DNA of 64,000 bases from Chloroflexota bacterium (GCA_018648325.1 JABGRK010000010.1:110219-174218); one strand, 5' to 3'; shown: positions 6,468 through 12,860, numbered from the stretch's first letter. Numbers and translations: made by a program. Notes: generated by a model not told the origin, from the letters alone.

Positions 6468-7203
6468 ATGAAACAACCACTCAAACGCATAACTTTGGCA
6501 ATACTTACGGCAACGCTGATAATCAGCCTGCTGTCAAACGCATGCCTTTTAGAGCAAGCTTCCATATACACCGTCACCCCCCCCCAATGAGGAAAACAAC
6601 TACCATGTCCAGTGTGAGTGGAACTACAAAGACAGAAGATGGGCATACGAGGTCGAAATACCGGTAACGCTTTATGAACACCTAAAAGGCACAGAAAGAA
6701 GCGCAAATTACGACGATTATGCGGTTAATGATCTGGATGACGACTGGTTGCAGGAAACAGCGACCACTTTCAAAACGCAGGCCGAGCAGGCAGGATGGGG
6801 ATTTCTCGATACGGTCGACTTCGTTATGTCGTTCGTACAAAATATACCGTACACCGTCGATCCTGAAACTACAAGCTATGACGAATATCCGCGCTATCCC
6901 ATAGAGACCATGATAGACGAAGGAGGTGACTGTGAAGACACAGTGGTGCTTCTTATCACTATCCTCAAGGAGATGGGATACGACGTAGCGCTGTTACTAT
7001 TTGCTTCAGATCAGCATATGGCCGCCGGAGTTCACATAACGCAGGAATTCGTTGACGGCTGGACTGAAAGCTACTCACTGAGATATTACAAAGGACTAAA
7101 CGGCAAAAACTACGCCTATTGTGACACAACCGGCTTGGGCTACAGACCGGGTGAGCAACCGGAAAAAATAAAGGGCAGCGCAAATATACTGCCTATTGAG
7201 TAG
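6468..7203 (+). pseudogene. Transglutaminase-like (GDCED) lipoprotein split by a frameshift in a C9 tract
   Basis: ATG 6468 gives a signal peptide and lipobox (LSNAC), then stops after C9 (6577-6585). With C8 the frame continues NEENNYHVQCEWNY... into ORF 6748-7203 (YPIET..GGDCEDT, HMAAG, YCDTT). Confidence 0.75.
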
Positions 7204-7242
7204 CAGACAATGAAATATCTGCGCAACTGATTAACCACAAAC

Positions 7243-7815
7243 TCATCCGTTTTCCTGCGGTTCTTTCGAAGCCAGCGCCCGTTTCTTTTTCTTCGATATG
7301 CGCCAGCGCCACAGGACAAAAAGCGCAACAAAACCAAATACTGCCCCTGTAACGCGCCAGGTTACAAAATCACCCAAGGCAATTGAAAGACCCCACGCTA
7401 GTAAAAATACTATAGAACCGGCAATAAGCACACCAATAACCGCTGCTGCAAATGCTTTCTTCCAATCCATACCCACCAGCCATGCAAGCAACGTGCCGGA
7501 ATATACGCCCGATCCGGGCAGTGGTATTCCTATAAAAATGCCCAGACCTATAAATCCATATTTTTTAATATAGGGTTCGCCCTTTTCCCTAATTCTTATT
7601 GTAGTTCTTTCATAGAACTTCCAACGTATAAGATATTTATGCGCGAATTTCAGTCCAAAATATATGGGGAAGAACAGCAGGATATTTACTATAACAGCTA
7701 TAGCAAAAACGGTTACCGGATTAAGGTCGTTATCAAGGATACCAATAGGAATGGAGGCCCTCAATTCTATCCAGGGCACCAGTGTAATCAATGCTATCTT
7801 CAAATAATCGACCAT
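7243..7815 (-). CDS. COG2426 / small multidrug export family membrane protein
   Basis: PWIELRASIP and FIGIPLPGSGVYSG motifs; multiple transmembrane segments. Confidence 0.8.
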   Translation of the reverse strand: MVDYLKIALITLVPWIELRASIPIGILDNDLNPVTVFAIAVIVNILLFFPIYFGLKFAHKYLIRWKFYERTTIRIREKGEPYIKKYGFIGLGIFIGIPLPGSGVYSGTLLAWLVGMDWKKAFAAAVIGVLIAGSIVFLLAWGLSIALGDFVTWRVTGAVFGFVALFVLWRWRISKKKKRALASKEPQENG

Positions 7816-7864
7816 ATATGCAATTCCTTATTCAAAATAAAAACCGCTGTACGCTTGCTTGAAA

Positions 7865-7917
7865 TTCTACACACTAACTTTGCCAAAGTCTACCTTGCCT
7901 GTGGTGATATAATGCGA
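7865..7917 (+). repeat. Copy 1 of promoter-bearing intergenic repeat
   Basis: 46/53 identical to 8275-8327. Contains ACTTTG-C-CAAAGT palindrome and extended -10 TGaTATAAT. Confidence 0.85.
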
Positions 7918-7935
7918 GCAAGATAGTGAAGGAGA

Positions 7936-8205
7936 GTGAGTATGGATTGGCTACTATGGGTCGTTAGAGCCATAATAATTGTTATAGGAATAATAGTGGC
8001 AATAAAGGTTTGGAAAGGGGAAAAGGGATACTCCTTTAGGTTTCTTACAATAGGAATTACTATTTTAATTTTGGGGGTTATTCTCCTAATAGTGTCTTTT
8101 GCAACAGACCTATCATCATTTTATGGTTTGTATCTTACTACTGCTGGAGCGATAGCTATCATAATCGGGTTGGTTATTCGGAATATATGGGAGAAGAACC
8201 GTTAA
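7936..8205 (+). CDS. Small hypothetical membrane protein (3 TM)
   Basis: SD GAAGGAG; hydrophobic helices; AT-rich. Confidence 0.7.
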   Translation: MSMDWLLWVVRAIIIVIGIIVAIKVWKGEKGYSFRFLTIGITILILGVILLIVSFATDLSSFYGLYLTTAGAIAIIIGLVIRNIWEKNR

Positions 8206-8274
8206 TGGCTCAACCTATGTTCAAACTCTCCCTATAGCTATAAAACCAGTTCAAACTCTAATTTTGTAACTGTG

Positions 8275-8327
8275 TTCTACACATTAACTTTGGCAAAGTC
8301 CACCTTGCCCATGATGGTATAATGCGA
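8275..8327 (+). repeat. Copy 2 of promoter-bearing intergenic repeat
   Basis: TTCTACACATTAACTTTGGCAAAGTCCACCTTGCCCATGATGGTATAATGCGA; TATAAT lies 9 nt before ATG 8333. Confidence 0.85.
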
Positions 8328-8332
8328 TAATC

Positions 8333-8938
8333 ATGAGCGATAAATACTATGCAGATATGGAAATCTTCTGGGCTGATTCATATCCATCGGTAGATTCTAT
8401 CGAAAATAGCGAGGCTTTCTATCAAGAGACTGGCTTTGTCGGAGGCTTCTTTCCTTACATCAACAAAATTCTGGCCCATCCATCGCTGAAGCCCAAAAAA
8501 GCACGCCTGCTTGAATTCGGTTGCGACAATGGCATCACACTAAACTACTTCAAAGATCGCTCACTTGAGTTATACGGCGTTGATATTAACAATGCCGCTA
8601 TCCAAAAAGGCAGAAAACTCTTCCCGCAGTTCAACCTTGTAAGATCATTCGGACTAGAAATCCCTTTCAAGGATAAATATTTTGATATAGTATTTGCTTC
8701 CGCTGTATTAAAACATATCAGGCACAAGGATAGACCTGCCGTATATCAAGAATTGGCGCGAGTTGCAGATTATGTTATTGTCAGCGAACTCAACTCTAAG
8801 GCTGATAACATCGAAGAAAGTTCGGGATTTATGTTTTACCATTCTGACTTTATCAAGGAGCTGCCAGACTATTTTGTCGAACTTGAGTTAATAAATATCG
8901 GCAATTACTTTCTGGGTCTATACAAGGTGAAACAATGA
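8333..8938 (+). CDS. Class I SAM-dependent methyltransferase
   Basis: LLEFGCDNG motif I, YGVDIN, IPFKDKYFDIVF. Confidence 0.85.
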   Translation: MSDKYYADMEIFWADSYPSVDSIENSEAFYQETGFVGGFFPYINKILAHPSLKPKKARLLEFGCDNGITLNYFKDRSLELYGVDINNAAIQKGRKLFPQFNLVRSFGLEIPFKDKYFDIVFASAVLKHIRHKDRPAVYQELARVADYVIVSELNSKADNIEESSGFMFYHSDFIKELPDYFVELELINIGNYFLGLYKVKQ

Positions 8939-9465
8939 CAAATCACGTATACATAGCTACAAGTTTAGATGGATATATTGCTACAAGCGACGGGGGATTG
9001 GATTGGCTTAACCAGATACCTAATCCCCAAAAAAGTGACTTCGGGTATGCTGAGTTTAACAGTAGAATCGATGCTATAGTGATGGGAAGAATCACATTTG
9101 AGAAAGTTTTAACCTTTGGCATTTGGCCATATGATAAACCTGTTTTCATATTAAGTACTACCCTAACCGAGCTTCCAGATACAATGGTTGGTAAAGCTGA
9201 AATTGTTAATGGAGACTTACACGAGCTGATTAAACGATTGAAAAAGAGAGGGTATAATAATTTATATATTGATGGCGGCAGAACAATACAGAACTTTTTG
9301 CAGGAAGATCTCATTGACGAAATGATTATTACAAGGGTTCCAATCCTGCTTGGAGATGGAGTCCCTTTATTCGGAAAGATCACGCAAAATATTAAGTTTA
9401 AACATAAGAAAACCGAGATTCTTAATAATTATCTAGCAAAGAGCAGCTATACCAGAGACAGATAA
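8935..9465 (+). CDS. Dihydrofolate reductase / RibD C-terminal family protein
   Basis: YIATSLDGYIA, VMGRITF, YIDGG, PILLGDG. Confidence 0.88.
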   Translation: MTNHVYIATSLDGYIATSDGGLDWLNQIPNPQKSDFGYAEFNSRIDAIVMGRITFEKVLTFGIWPYDKPVFILSTTLTELPDTMVGKAEIVNGDLHELIKRLKKRGYNNLYIDGGRTIQNFLQEDLIDEMIITRVPILLGDGVPLFGKITQNIKFKHKKTEILNNYLAKSSYTRDR

Positions 9466-9544
9466 TGGCAACTAAGGTGCCATCAAACTACCACCGTACT
9501 ATTCTCATAACTACAGCGCCAACTCAAATTCTTGCTTGTAACTG

Positions 9545-9574
9545 AAGTTCACATTGCATACAGTGGTATAATGC
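9545..9574 (+). repeat. Copy 3 (degenerate) of promoter-bearing intergenic repeat
   Basis: AAGTTCACATTGCATACAGTGGTATAATGC is colinear with copy 2 (23/30). Upstream TTGTAACTG is shared with copy 2 and CTTGCTTG with copy 1. Confidence 0.65.
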
Positions 9575-9608
9575 AGCCAATAATCAATGCATCCGAGAAA
9601 GGGAAACA

Positions 9609-9998
9609 GTGACTGCTCAAGTAGCCGCTATTATTGCATCAACGGGATTATTTGGATTGATGTGTTTTCAGCTATTACTGGCTACAGGATTGCCAATAGG
9701 ACATCTTGCATGGGGAGGCAAGTATAGAATACTTCCCACCCGTTTGCGCATCGCCAGCGTTTTCTCGGCGTGCGTTTTTGTATTTGCATCCATCCTAGTG
9801 CTGGAAAAAGCAAACGTCTTTTCGCTCCTGAACAATAGTATTCTATTAACATATGGGGTCTGGATACTTACCGGTTTCTTTGGATTAAACACCGCTTCCA
9901 ACCTGGCCTCACGCAGTAAATGGGAAAAGCGGATTATGGCCCCCATAGCGCTGAGTTTGTGCATACTATGCATAATTATTGCCATTACCTCCGGTTGA
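9609..9998 (+). CDS. Hypothetical 4-TM membrane protein
   Basis: FQLLLATGLPIGHLAWGG...LASRSKWEK pattern; hydrophobic; SD-like AGGGA. Confidence 0.75.
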   Translation: MTAQVAAIIASTGLFGLMCFQLLLATGLPIGHLAWGGKYRILPTRLRIASVFSACVFVFASILVLEKANVFSLLNNSILLTYGVWILTGFFGLNTASNLASRSKWEKRIMAPIALSLCILCIIIAITSG

Positions 9999-10015
9999 TA
10001 ACGATTGTATTCAAA

Positions 10016-10046
10016 GCCTGTGGTGGTATAATGCGATAATTATGAG
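10016..10046 (+). repeat. Copy 4 (3' part) of promoter-bearing intergenic repeat
   Basis: GCCTGTGGTGGTATAATGCGATAATTATGAG matches copy 2 through the start codon. Confidence 0.75.
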
Positions 10047-10395
10047 TAATAAATCTGAAAAGGCACAATTCCTTCAGTACGTATTATCCGAAGTCCTGGC
10101 AGACATAGACGGAATATCATCACGGGCTATGTTTGGAGGCTATGGCATCTACAAAGAAGGCATCATCTTCGCCATCATTGCTGATGAGCAACTCTACTTC
10201 AAAGTTGACCAATCCAACCGCTCTGACTACGAGCAGTACGGCAGCCACCCCTTCGTCTACTCTCAGGGTAAAACCAAATCCACCACCATGTCCTACTGGG
10301 AACTACCTGCCGATATTCAGGAAGACAGGCATGAAATCGCCAAATGGGTTGAGAAGGCATACGAGGTTAGTAAAAACCGAAAGAAAAATAAATGA
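10042..10395 (+). CDS. TfoX/Sxy N-terminal domain protein
   Basis: SRAMFGGYGIY, FAIIADEQLYFKVD, MSYWELP. Start at ATG 10042. Confidence 0.85.
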   Translation: MSNKSEKAQFLQYVLSEVLADIDGISSRAMFGGYGIYKEGIIFAIIADEQLYFKVDQSNRSDYEQYGSHPFVYSQGKTKSTTMSYWELPADIQEDRHEIAKWVEKAYEVSKNRKKNK

Positions 10396-10844
10396 GATCT
10401 GAAGCTACAACAGTAGATGATTACCTTTCGGAGCTACCCAAGGAACGCAGGCAGGCGATCGACAACGTTCGTAAGGTAATTCTAAATAACTTACCCCCGG
10501 GCTATGAAGAAGTGATGAACTGGGGAATGATCACCTATTAGGTCCCGCTAGCTACCTATCCCGATACCTACAACAAAAAACCGCTCATGTATGCCGCCCT
10601 GGCCTCTCAGAAAAACCATATGGCGGTGTATCTTATCAGTATCTATATGAATGAGCAAACAAGCCGAGAGTTTGAGGCAGAATACCGTGCTACCGGTAAA
10701 AGATACGATGTGGGCAGGTCATGCGTGCGCTTTAAAAAAGTCGATGATTTGCCACTTGAGCTGATCGCAAAAGCCATAGCCATGTACGATGCTAAAACCT
10801 ATGTGAATATGGAAAAAGCCAGAACTGCCAAAGACAATTCTTGA
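10392..10844 (+). pseudogene. DUF1801-family protein with an in-frame TAG
   Basis: ATG 10392 MRSEATTVDDYLSELP...NWGMITY*VPLATYPDTYNKKPLMYAAL. TAG at 10539-10541; the frame continues into ORF 10587-10844. Confidence 0.8.
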
Positions 10845-10889
10845 GTTATCAGGTATAATCGTTCCATTCTAATAAAAGGAGTATGCAAA

Positions 10890-11306
10890 ATGACCATCGA
10901 GATCAACGACCTCAACATCTGGGCAATCATCGTTTGTATCATAATCTATATGGCTATCGGGGCACTGTGGTACTCTCCAAAGCTGTTCGGCAATATCTGG
11001 CTCAAACTGGTTGGCAAAACCAAGGAGGACATAAGCAAGTCCGATGCCAATAAATCTATGATGCTCAGCATCATACCCGCCGCCATAACCGTGTTTCTGC
11101 TGGCGCATATACTGGGCTTTGCCAACACAACAACAGCATTTGATGCCTTGATCATGGGAACAATTGTATCAATAGGAATTATAGGCATGAGCACACTTAA
11201 CCTGGTGTTTTTCGAAGGAAGGTCACTCAAACTGACGGGGATAAATGTCGCCTATCCGTTCGTGGCACTCAACATTGCGGCGATAATACTTACATACTGG
11301 CAGTAG
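10890..11306 (+). CDS. DUF1761-family membrane protein
   Basis: NIWAII...IGALWYSPKLFGNIW, FEGRSLKL..IN; SD AAGGAG. Confidence 0.8.
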   Translation: MTIEINDLNIWAIIVCIIIYMAIGALWYSPKLFGNIWLKLVGKTKEDISKSDANKSMMLSIIPAAITVFLLAHILGFANTTTAFDALIMGTIVSIGIIGMSTLNLVFFEGRSLKLTGINVAYPFVALNIAAIILTYWQ

Positions 11307-11390
11307 ATTGAACTATTTTGAACAACCGCGGCAAAAAAGACTTTTCGGTGGACTACCCAATTCAGGTTTTAAAATGGGAGAATAGGCAAA

Positions 11391-12065
11391 ATGGACCTAA
11401 ACACATCAATCATAAGCTTCCTGATCCAGCTAACGCTGAACAATGACCGCAGTTGGTTTAATGCAAACAAAGAGCTATATGTGAGCGCCAAAAAAGAGTT
11501 CGAAGGATTTGTCGACAAACTCATTCCCATTATCAAAGGTATCGACCCGGGAATAGACGTGTTAAGTGCCAGCCAATGCACATTCAGAATCTATAGAGAT
11601 GCCCGGTTTTCAAGAGACGGCTTGCCATACAAAACAAACTTTGGCGCGCATATCGCAAAAGGAGGCAGAAAAAGCCCCTTTGCCGGATACTACGTTCATC
11701 TGCAACCGAATGAGTCCTTTGTTGGAGGAGGCATTTATATGCCCCAGCCCAAATATCTTAAAGCAATCAGAACCCGGATTTATGAAAACGCTCAAAGCTA
11801 TAAAGAAATAATAAATAACGCTGCTTTCAAGAAGTATTTCCCGGAACTATATGGTGAAAAGCTAAAAACCGCCCCCAGAGATTTCCCCAAGGATTTTGCA
11901 GATATCGGCCTGCTTAAAAACAAGCACTATGTCGTGACTCACAGTGTCGATGATTCTTTCTGGACATCACAAGAATTGATTAAAAAGCTGACCGAAATAT
12001 TTAAAGCCCAACTCCCGTTCAATCAATTCATGAACAAAGCGATTAAGAGTGCAATAAATACCTAG
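11391..12065 (+). CDS. DUF2461 (TIGR02453) family protein
   Basis: NNDRSWFNANK, FRIYRDARFSRD..PYK, GYYVHLQP, LKTAPRDF. Confidence 0.85.
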   Translation: MDLNTSIISFLIQLTLNNDRSWFNANKELYVSAKKEFEGFVDKLIPIIKGIDPGIDVLSASQCTFRIYRDARFSRDGLPYKTNFGAHIAKGGRKSPFAGYYVHLQPNESFVGGGIYMPQPKYLKAIRTRIYENAQSYKEIINNAAFKKYFPELYGEKLKTAPRDFPKDFADIGLLKNKHYVVTHSVDDSFWTSQELIKKLTEIFKAQLPFNQFMNKAIKSAINT

Positions 12066-12105
12066 GCAACACCCCGTCCCTCCAATCCCACAAAACGCCG
12101 CTTCA

Positions 12106-12135
12106 TTGACAATTGTAGCCTCAAAACCCTATACT
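12106..12135 (+). promoter_or_regulatory. Sigma-70 promoter of rpsU-yqeY
   Basis: TTGACA-N18-TATACT. Confidence 0.7.
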
Positions 12136-12180
12136 TAAGTTTCGTGACCCATATCCTATAACAGAAGGGAGGTGAAACCT

Positions 12181-12363
12181 GTGAGCGAAGTATATATCCG
12201 CGATGACGAAAACTTCGAGGGCGCACTTAAACGTTTCAATAAGAAGGTCCAGCAGGAAGGCATCCTTTCTGAAACGCGCCGCAGAGGTTACTACGAAAAA
12301 CCAAGCATAAAACGCAAGAAGAAGGAAGCTATCAAGAGGCGTAAGAGCGCCAAGAGTTCTTAG
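12181..12363 (+). CDS. rpsU: 30S ribosomal protein S21
   Basis: [20 protein letters not shown]...YYEKPS; SD GGAGG before GTG 12181. Confidence 0.95.
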
Positions 12364-12392
12364 AATAATTCTCTTATTTGATAGGTTTTTAA

Positions 12393-12839
12393 ATGGCTTT
12401 AGAAGAAAAACTAACGGATGACATGAAAACGGCGATGAAAAGCAAAGACAAGCTGCGCCTGTCGGTCATTCGCATGGTAAAAGCCAAGATCAAAAACGCC
12501 CAGATAGAAAAACGCGACGTGCTAAACGACGATGAGGTGCTCAAAGTCATTGCCCGCGACGTCAAACAGCACAAGGAAAGTATCACTGCGTTTACAGATG
12601 GCGGGCGCACCGAGCTTGCCGAAAAAGAAGAGGCCGAGCTTGAAATACTCATGGAGTATATGCCACAGCAAATGTCACGAGACGAGGTTGTGGCCATTAT
12701 CAATCAGGCGATTGCTGAGACAGGAGCCACCGGCCCGCAGGACAAGGGCAAGGTCATGGGCAAGATAATGGCTCAGGTTTCAGGCAAAGCCGATGGCAAA
12801 GAGGTCAATACTATCGTAATGGAACTTCTGGCCGGTTAG
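12393..12839 (+). CDS. GatB/YqeY domain protein
   Basis: DMKTAMKSKDK, DKGKVMG, GKADG; conserved linkage to rpsU. Confidence 0.9.
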   Translation: MALEEKLTDDMKTAMKSKDKLRLSVIRMVKAKIKNAQIEKRDVLNDDEVLKVIARDVKQHKESITAFTDGGRTELAEKEEAELEILMEYMPQQMSRDEVVAIINQAIAETGATGPQDKGKVMGKIMAQVSGKADGKEVNTIVMELLAG

Positions 12840-12860
12840 AGATAACCGGCCTTTCCTTTT
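12831..12860 (+). terminator. Intrinsic terminator after yqeY
   Basis: GGCCGGTTA-GAGA-TAACCGGCC followed by TTTCCTTTT. Confidence 0.7.

Follow-up and report, generated by a model that had tools for sequence, protein, structure and literature searches.

Small accessory genes are known to be gathered in genomes in several ways. Integrons are defined by an integrase gene (intI), by attC sites and by a common promoter, Pc, and the clusters of attC sites lacking integron-integrases (CALIN) belong with them. Marine bacteria have flexible genomic islets, also called hypervariable regions. T4-type phages carry many copies of promoter-plus-terminator stem-loops (PeSLs), for which recombination products and mini-circles have been demonstrated, according to two reports (Arbiol et al. 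2010, PMC2839356; Comeau et al. 2014, PMC4122927). Promoter reuse, or the occurrence of putative mobile promoters, refers to identities of at least 80% over at least 50 nt upstream of genes (PMC3575422, commentary on Matus-Garcia, Nijveen and van Passel 2012). The present analysis deals with a block of eight genes, all on the + strand, at 7936-12065 (~4.2 kb) of a 64,000-nt stretch of a Chloroflexota bacterium (GCA_018648325.1, JABGRK010000010.1:110219-174218), and with a 53-nt repeat, present as copies S1 and S2, that precedes its first two genes. The whole stretch is called the window (G000:C11:110219-174218), where G000 is the source genome, and G001 denotes its one same-genus relative; the sequencing runs containing the stretch are marine or seawater metagenomes.

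Among these systems, the closest described phenomenon is promoter reuse. S1 and S2 are identical at 46 of 53 positions (87%), stand before unrelated genes and have no known mobile element attached. The published screen covered the interval from -150 to -50 relative to the start codon, mostly without the -10 box, whereas S1 and S2 lie closer to their genes and include it, and, unlike the published cases, they are just 410 nt apart in one array. With flexible islets the locus has in common an accessory block of low G+C, present or absent between conserved flanks and without mobility genes, although at 4.2 kb it is very small and the comparison is with one relative. It also resembles integron and CALIN arrays, being a co-directional run of small unrelated genes, mostly of unknown function, whose content differs between relatives (the block is absent from G001, a single relative). 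An integron, however, has an integrase at the array, which a CALIN may lack, and there is none on contig C11 here; an attC hairpin follows each cassette, and no attC-like structure was found here, where two junctions have no spacer; and its cassettes are promoterless behind the common promoter, whereas the units of the block are self-promoted and some of its genes overlap.

Taking the PeSLs as the two reports present them, the likeness lies in sigma70-like promoters, putative in the present case, that stand repeatedly between small non-essential genes where close relatives differ. The strong sigma70 promoter of the PeSLs is to be compared, at the level of sequence only, with a consensus extended -10 in four spacers that has no canonical -35. 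PeSL indels begin and end in copies, while the difference between G000 and G001 has its left end in S1 and its right end outside any copy, and the block, unlike the PeSL regions, has no stem-loop, has one true repeat pair, belongs to a cellular chromosome and showed no recombinant forms in four metagenome runs. The block fails on defining features of both integrons and PeSLs, and the latter may serve as a functional analogy only.

A Putative Islet with One Reused Promoter

The reading we favor, with somewhat more confidence than doubt, is that the block is a flexible-genome islet in a core syntenic region, composed of self-promoted units, with one instance of promoter reuse and no dedicated capture machinery. 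Observed directly are the statistics of the repeat, the spread of the promoter word, the presence of the block in G000 and its absence from G001, and the lack of an integrase and of hairpins; that G001 lost the block, rather than G000 gaining it, is what we infer from them. Lying between COG2426 and the rpsU-yqeY operon, the islet would be made up of some five or six compact transcription units, namely the small membrane protein, the methyltransferase with RibD_C, the 129-aa membrane protein, TfoX with a broken DUF1801, and DUF1761 and DUF2461. Each of the first four would begin with a near-consensus extended -10, TGGTATAATGC, of a kind in wide use in this genus; two of them would leave almost no leader, and read-through toward rpsU would be possible because there are no internal terminators. 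S2, as the methyltransferase promoter, would be a paralogous copy of S1 and the one case of promoter reuse. Genes would be gained and lost via ordinary recombination, with no machinery dedicated to their capture, and G001, which has the smaller genome, would most likely have lost the block and been left with a decaying S1.

The Repeat Pair and the Promoter Word

The promoter word TGNTATAATGC is present in all four of the spacers S1-S4, and its 41 sites in G000 can be paired in 820 ways. When the 45 nt upstream were compared over all these pairings, S1/S2 ranked first, with 34/45 identities (mean 13.3, sd 4.1), and the Smith-Waterman local score of the pair is 25 sd above shuffles (z=25). The repeat spans about -71 to -19 from the start codon in S1 and about -58 to -6 in S2, stopping short of both coding regions, and the downstream genes are non-paralogous. 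The perfect palindrome ACTTTG-N-CAAAGT occurs in S1, in S2 and at one more site of the 2.0-Mb genome, where the third copy, ACTTTGACAAAGT at C17:30451-30463, precedes, by ~30 nt, a gene of 383 aa that we take, from its resemblance, to be a myo-inositol-1-phosphate synthase. This copy may share a regulon with S1 and S2. The 13-nt palindrome, ACTTTGSCAAAGT, is probably the binding site of one regulator. Since S1 also holds a minus-strand COG2426 promoter-like site, it would be a bidirectional control region for COG2426 and the first gene, and S2 would be a copy of the whole.

The original prediction, which had described the S1/S2 identity and the palindrome correctly, went on to claim that four spacers share one element. 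This holds for S1 and S2, which form a two-member cluster in a comparison of the 55 nt that precede the word, but S3 (9545-9574) and S4 (10016-10046) remain singletons, their best scores reaching 18 where the null 99.9th percentile is 22 (53 promoter sites, the word itself excluded). The true repeat is thus common to just 2/7 spacers, S5, S6 and S7 being unrelated to all others. The extended -10 that was predicted for four spacers is indeed in all of them, but it is not a local feature. Against the 41 sites in G000 and 22 in G001, reversed-pattern controls gave 2 and 1, and in three class members from other families the word has 5, 6 and 0 sites. A consensus scan revealed no canonical -35 at 16-18 nt in the four spacers that carry the word.

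The genes downstream of the word are mutually unrelated across the genome, and some, presumably housekeeping genes, are by their N-termini what we take to be RuvB-, FolD- and isopropylmalate-synthase-like. With the word found genus-wide before unrelated genes, the 3' part of the proposed element therefore has every appearance of an ordinary, very conserved promoter. The original prediction had itself named such use of the element elsewhere as evidence against a capture array, and in part this is what was seen, the word standing before many unrelated genes. For the methyltransferase and TfoX, the ATG follows TATAAT by 9 nt, as at several other sites of the word, and this distance implies mRNAs that would be leaderless or nearly so.

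Nearly half of the sampled sites (24/53; 17 in G000, 7 in G001) form one genus-specific family, whose members have the -35 region CTCCTTGCCAAC in common and in many cases a CATCCCGATAAC box further upstream, in the layout CATCCCGATAAC (optional)-N6-8-CTCCTTGCCAAC-N13-TGGTATAATGC; examples are at G000 C6:23626-43625, C2:25000-44999 and C17:1-20000 and on G001 C32. S1 and S2 fall outside this family at the threshold applied. Its members head genes for YcxB/Zn-ribbon, a PD40/FN3 surface protein, DinB_2, a histidine kinase, methyltransferases, DUF7226 and a NucS_C-like protein. On G001 C32 there are five co-directional promoters in 9.3 kb, four of them in the family, and the G000 homologs of the genes on that contig are spread over five contigs. 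About ten G000 sites of the word, with coordinates read by eye, are within 10 kb of tyrosine-recombinase matches.

Search for Capture Machinery

The original prediction of a gene-capture array had noted that neither an integrase nor a canonical attC was visible, and on both counts it was right. The genome has 11 PF00589 (tyrosine recombinase) matches, none of which is on the 278-kb contig C11, and the Pfam annotation of 633-28003 contains no recombinase. Six spacers were folded and none did better than its shuffles (z from -0.82 to +0.62); inverted repeats were lacking within spacers, as were + strand terminator-like sites throughout the spacers of the block, and Rfam gave no match at E<=1. 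At two junctions the genes overlap by ATGA (methyltransferase/RibD_C and TfoX/DUF1801), and at two more the spacers are unrelated.

Comparison with the Relative

Among the genomes compared, the family contains just G000 (2.0 Mb, 93% complete) and G001 (1.2 Mb, 90% complete). COG2426 (73% protein identity) and rpsU are syntenic in G001, where they are 249 nt apart, and seven of the eight block genes were not found in this 90% complete genome, TfoX being the exception; cargo that varies between these two flanks, as had been predicted, was therefore confirmed. The G001 spacer can be aligned with S1 over its left 93 nt, as far as ACCTTG (window 7897), and on its right side homology resumes at ~12092, a short way ahead of the rpsU promoter, which is conserved in G001. 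In between, the middle 70 nt hold no block-gene remnants (score 21; the shuffles averaged 20.4). The G001 spacer keeps the COG2426-side hexamers (TGGACT/TAGAAT); its + strand -10 reads TGGCATAAC, the palindrome has lost its left arm, and no TGNTATAATGC word is listed on the contig with this spacer. Such a decayed promoter would favor loss in G001 over gain in G000.

The TfoX ortholog of G001 is at another locus, with 78% nt identity and its own GTGGTGGTATAATGC promoter, which has the -10 word also seen in spacer S4, and homology between the two loci starts in the -10 region and reaches as far as the stop codon. Ahead of the ortholog are a large acyl-CoA-synthetase-like gene of 959 aa and then a dispersed repeat. 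This repeat of ~85 nt (G001:C165; L071 6979-7061), between the 959-aa gene and the TfoX promoter, is found in G000 as four copies of 74-77% identity (C4, C12, C10, C7).

A second islet present in G000 only, at C9:9763-13666, has flanks (a gatA-like amidase; an asnC-type regulator and an aminotransferase) that are 45 nt apart in G001:C93. It contains two methyltransferases, a DUF4625-like gene, an unknown gene, and TfoX_N-like and SnoaL-like genes, along with two TGGTATAATGC promoters, and its presence argues that small self-promoted accessory islets in core regions recur between G000 and G001 and would be ordinary in this pair of genomes. Six other promoter sites were compared, of which two are in continuous synteny, three are in G000-only segments and one is at the edge of a conserved gene, a pattern indistinguishable from chance with ~40% of G000 missing in G001.

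Spread of the Element and of the First Two Genes

The original prediction had proposed a search for the element across relatives. A 33-nt pattern, with up to 2 mismatches allowed, was sought in 401 class genomes, and exact matches were confined to G000 (2) and G001 (1); 2-mismatch matches occurred in three other genomes, with 1 for the control. The 22-nt core had one match in 185,579 species genomes (a Cyclobacteriaceae metagenome-assembled genome), which is at chance level, and 0 in viral contigs.

The first gene belongs to a large and highly conserved family, with 365 homologs at E<=0.001, and among the matches listed (120) identities are 70-98%, with many named Chloroflexota; in 301 class and 401 phylum genomes, none was found besides that of the query's own genome. 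For the methyltransferase there are 16 homologs, 72-81% identical, almost all 201 aa long and many named Chloroflexota bacterium, and the gene was found in 1/251 class genomes, the query's own. That so many homologs of 70-80% identity carry the name Chloroflexota suggests that both genes belong to the gene pool of the wider lineage. The NCBI protein accessions of first-gene and methyltransferase homologs are never fewer than 6,151 apart, a gap that points to their independent distribution and separate travel.

The assembly of the arrangement is confirmed by contigs from another study, one of which covers 6649-10098 with 0 differences and another 10803-12733. In four metagenome runs no joints or alternative junctions were seen at the repeats, which, with contigs only and a depth of 3-7, is a weak test for rare variants; uncovered parts in runs X7, X9 and X10 were not counted as evidence. 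RNA runs contained only 5-6% of the sequence words.

Weighing the Alternatives

Several points weigh against the islet as we read it. Its promoter activity and operator function are deduced from sequence. The choice of loss over gain rests on one relative and a decayed promoter, and no outgroup with COG2426-rpsU synteny was found; a metagenome scan with the COG2426 protein gave 60 loci of ~50% identity, none with rpsU or block genes, and was uninformative. The 36-40% G+C of the first three genes is easier to reconcile with recent foreign origin than with long residence. S1 and S2 enclose a single gene, and the G000/G001 difference has its left end inside S1; both are what repeat-mediated exchange would predict. 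Finally, COG2426 and the methyltransferase have their best non-self matches (P0153, 82%, and P0003, 80%, respectively) each on a single JGI contig of 2,710 nt.

Recent horizontal acquisition by G000, either of the block or of its low-G+C left part, which would have entered behind a promoter already in place, with G001 as the ancestral empty site, is unlikely. It would account for a G+C of 36-40% in the first three genes where the genome has 46.8%, for the seven genes not found in G001, and for the narrow distribution of the methyltransferase (1/251 in the class) and of the first gene (1/301 in the class, 1/401 in the phylum), in each case the query's own copy. On the other hand, a decayed TGGCATAAC with half of the palindrome lost fits a promoter deprived of its gene better than a working ancestral one, and the G001 genome is ~40% smaller, which makes loss its general trend. 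The right five genes are of near-normal composition, moreover, and the best homologs of the first gene and of the methyltransferase are named Chloroflexota.

The original prediction was that modules are exchanged by recombination at a shared promoter repeat. In this cellular analogue of the PeSLs, homologous recombination would swap promoter-plus-gene units and would have built the array, an origin that we consider quite improbable. It draws on the direct repeats, 87% identical over 53 nt, that bracket one gene, on the left end within S1, on the different loci of TfoX plus promoter in G000 and G001, and on G001 C32, with its five co-directional promoters of the related 24-member family and homologs on five G000 contigs. 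The 2,710-nt contigs bear on it as well, since P0153 and P0003 may be on one and the same contig, in which case COG2426 would adjoin the methyltransferase without the first gene in a closer relative. This would be a third junction state, and the product expected from S1xS2 exchange; none of the first-gene homologs among the matches listed is on a 2,710-nt contig. The equal lengths could nevertheless be chance, as a second equal pair, of 1,172 nt, is too short to hold both genes.

What speaks more broadly against exchange at the repeat is that the locus has one true repeat pair only, in two of its seven spacers, that the right end of the difference is outside any repeat, and that the spacers have no stem-loops. 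No joints were seen in the four runs (at low depth and in contigs only), and the element is absent from all other genomes searched. Breakpoints between transcription units are expected anyway, and hence would lie near promoters without any mechanism.

An integrase-free integron-like array with attC-type sites (CALIN) is largely refuted and retains next to no credibility, for although its genes are small, unrelated and co-directional and its content varies between relatives, the 278-kb contig has no tyrosine recombinase, the spacers show no folding beyond that of their shuffles, no inverted repeats and no Rfam match, two ATGA overlaps leave no spacer, and the units are self-promoted, unlike promoterless cassettes.

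Gene Content and Remaining Spacers

The eight + strand genes that had been predicted between COG2426 and rpsU are borne out by Pfam (Table 1), with the qualification that DUF1801 is broken by a TAG. The small membrane protein encoded by the first gene, the sole gene bracketed by the true repeats, matched no Pfam or NCBIfam family; a GGAG-containing leader lies between S1 and this gene. In PADLOC the block gave just a weak methyltransferase-domain match, and a search of a limited literature collection found no paper treating DUF2461 together with DUF1801. To the right, a fused purL is 3' of rpsU-yqeY and convergent to both. The region 633-28003 consists of core metabolism and replication genes (POR, AMP-ligase, purL, rplI, dnaB, fur, feoB), and its Pfam annotation has no mobile-element genes.

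Table 1. Genes, repeat copies and promoter-like features of the block and its flanks, with positions in the window.
Feature	Position	Strand	Basis and remarks
COG2426 / Sm_multidrug_ex (small multidrug export family)	7243-7815	-	Pfam PF06695, E=1.2e-28; left flank, conserved
COG2426 promoter-like site TAGACT-17-TAGAAT	7864-7892	-	consensus scan; overlaps S1; putative function
S1, element copy	7865-7917	+	palindrome 7877-7889; extended -10 word TGATATAATGC 7905-7915
Small membrane protein (first gene)	7942-8205	+	87 aa from ATG; 89 aa from GTG at 7936
S2, element copy	8275-8327	+	palindrome 8287-8299; TGGTATAATGC 8315-8325
Class I SAM-dependent methyltransferase	8333-8938	+	Pfam Methyltransf_11/25/23
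RibD_C / dihydrofolate-reductase-like	8935-9465	+	Pfam PF01872, E=1.2e-17; ATGA overlap with methyltransferase stop
Promoter word TGGTATAATGC in spacer S3 (9466-9608)	9564-9574	+	pattern search
129-aa membrane protein	9609-9998	+	no Pfam/NCBIfam family matched
Promoter word TGGTATAATGC in spacer S4 (9999-10041)	10024-10034	+	pattern search
TfoX_N domain protein	10042-10395	+	Pfam PF04993, E=1.1e-29
DUF1801 gene	10392-10844	+	Pfam PF08818 match spans in-frame stop; start overlaps TfoX stop (ATGA)
Promoter-like site AAGACA-17-TATAAT before DUF1761	10831-10859	+	consensus scan; unlike the S1-S4 word
DUF1761 membrane protein	10890-11306	+	Pfam PF08570, E=4.5e-24
DUF2461 / TIGR02453 protein	11391-12065	+	Pfam PF09365, E=1.2e-70; NCBIfam TIGR02453
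rpsU promoter TTGACA-18-TATACT	12106-12135	+	consensus scan; conserved in G001
rpsU (S21, 12172-12363) and yqeY	12172-12839	+	Pfam; conserved right flank
Terminator-like hairpin	12830-12851	+	ends rpsU-yqeY; the region's only + strand one

The genes had also been called AT-rich, which is true of the block as a whole, with 41.4% G+C against a genome mean of 46.8% and a place in the lowest 3.4% of 4.25-kb windows. The composition is uneven, the first three genes having 36-40% and the remaining five a near-normal 42-46%. More than one layer of origin is probable for the block.

Two spacers had been said to begin alike (TAATGGC...TCAAACT). The string is present at these two spacers only, but as an alignment their upstream halves are marginal, the score being reached by 26/1000 shuffles. 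S2 and S4 are alike at 33/39 positions, extending into the first codons, and 17/20 downstream is the top value of the 820 pairs. A converted 5' end that includes codons was considered, and the coding part was rejected, MS[DN]K being the native N-terminus both of the methyltransferase family and of the G001 TfoX ortholog; once this part is set aside as coincidence, what is left of the likeness is a 7-nt stretch, GATAATY, that lies after the -10 and ahead of the ATG. A reading of GATAATYAT as a Fur box, prompted by a weak match by eye to boxes upstream of fur and feoB, was dropped.

The in-frame TAG of DUF1801 is at 10539-10541, and the seven other genes of the block are intact. The same TAG is in 100%-identical contigs from other runs, including those of another study, while a related contig (~85% identical) has C for T at 10539, giving CAG. 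Because TAG is commonly used as a stop here, terminating DUF1761, DUF2461, rpsU and yqeY, DUF1801 is probably a fixed pseudogene. At 10478-10711, very deep contigs (115-380) of other organisms in the marine runs match ~77 nt of DUF1801 at <90% identity, and from their depth an abundant marine organism would appear to carry a related DUF1801 gene.

Significance

If the ordinary reading of the islet holds, the value of the locus is mainly one of annotation. It would provide a promoter consensus for an uncultured marine Chloroflexi genus, mark two small variable islets in core regions and supply a clean example from nature of promoter reuse, together with a candidate operator.

A bolder possibility, which we regard as improbable, is that near-consensus promoter modules in this genus, both S1/S2 and the CATCCCGATAAC...CTCCTTGCCAAC...TGGTATAATGC family, act as joints where homologous recombination adds, removes and reshuffles units of promoter plus gene. 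Were it true, the first gene would be inserted or deleted by S1xS2 exchange, and relatives would carry other cargo behind the element. Recombination at repeated promoters would then organize accessory genes in a cellular genome without integrases, and this would bear on how streamlined marine bacteria maintain a flexible gene pool.

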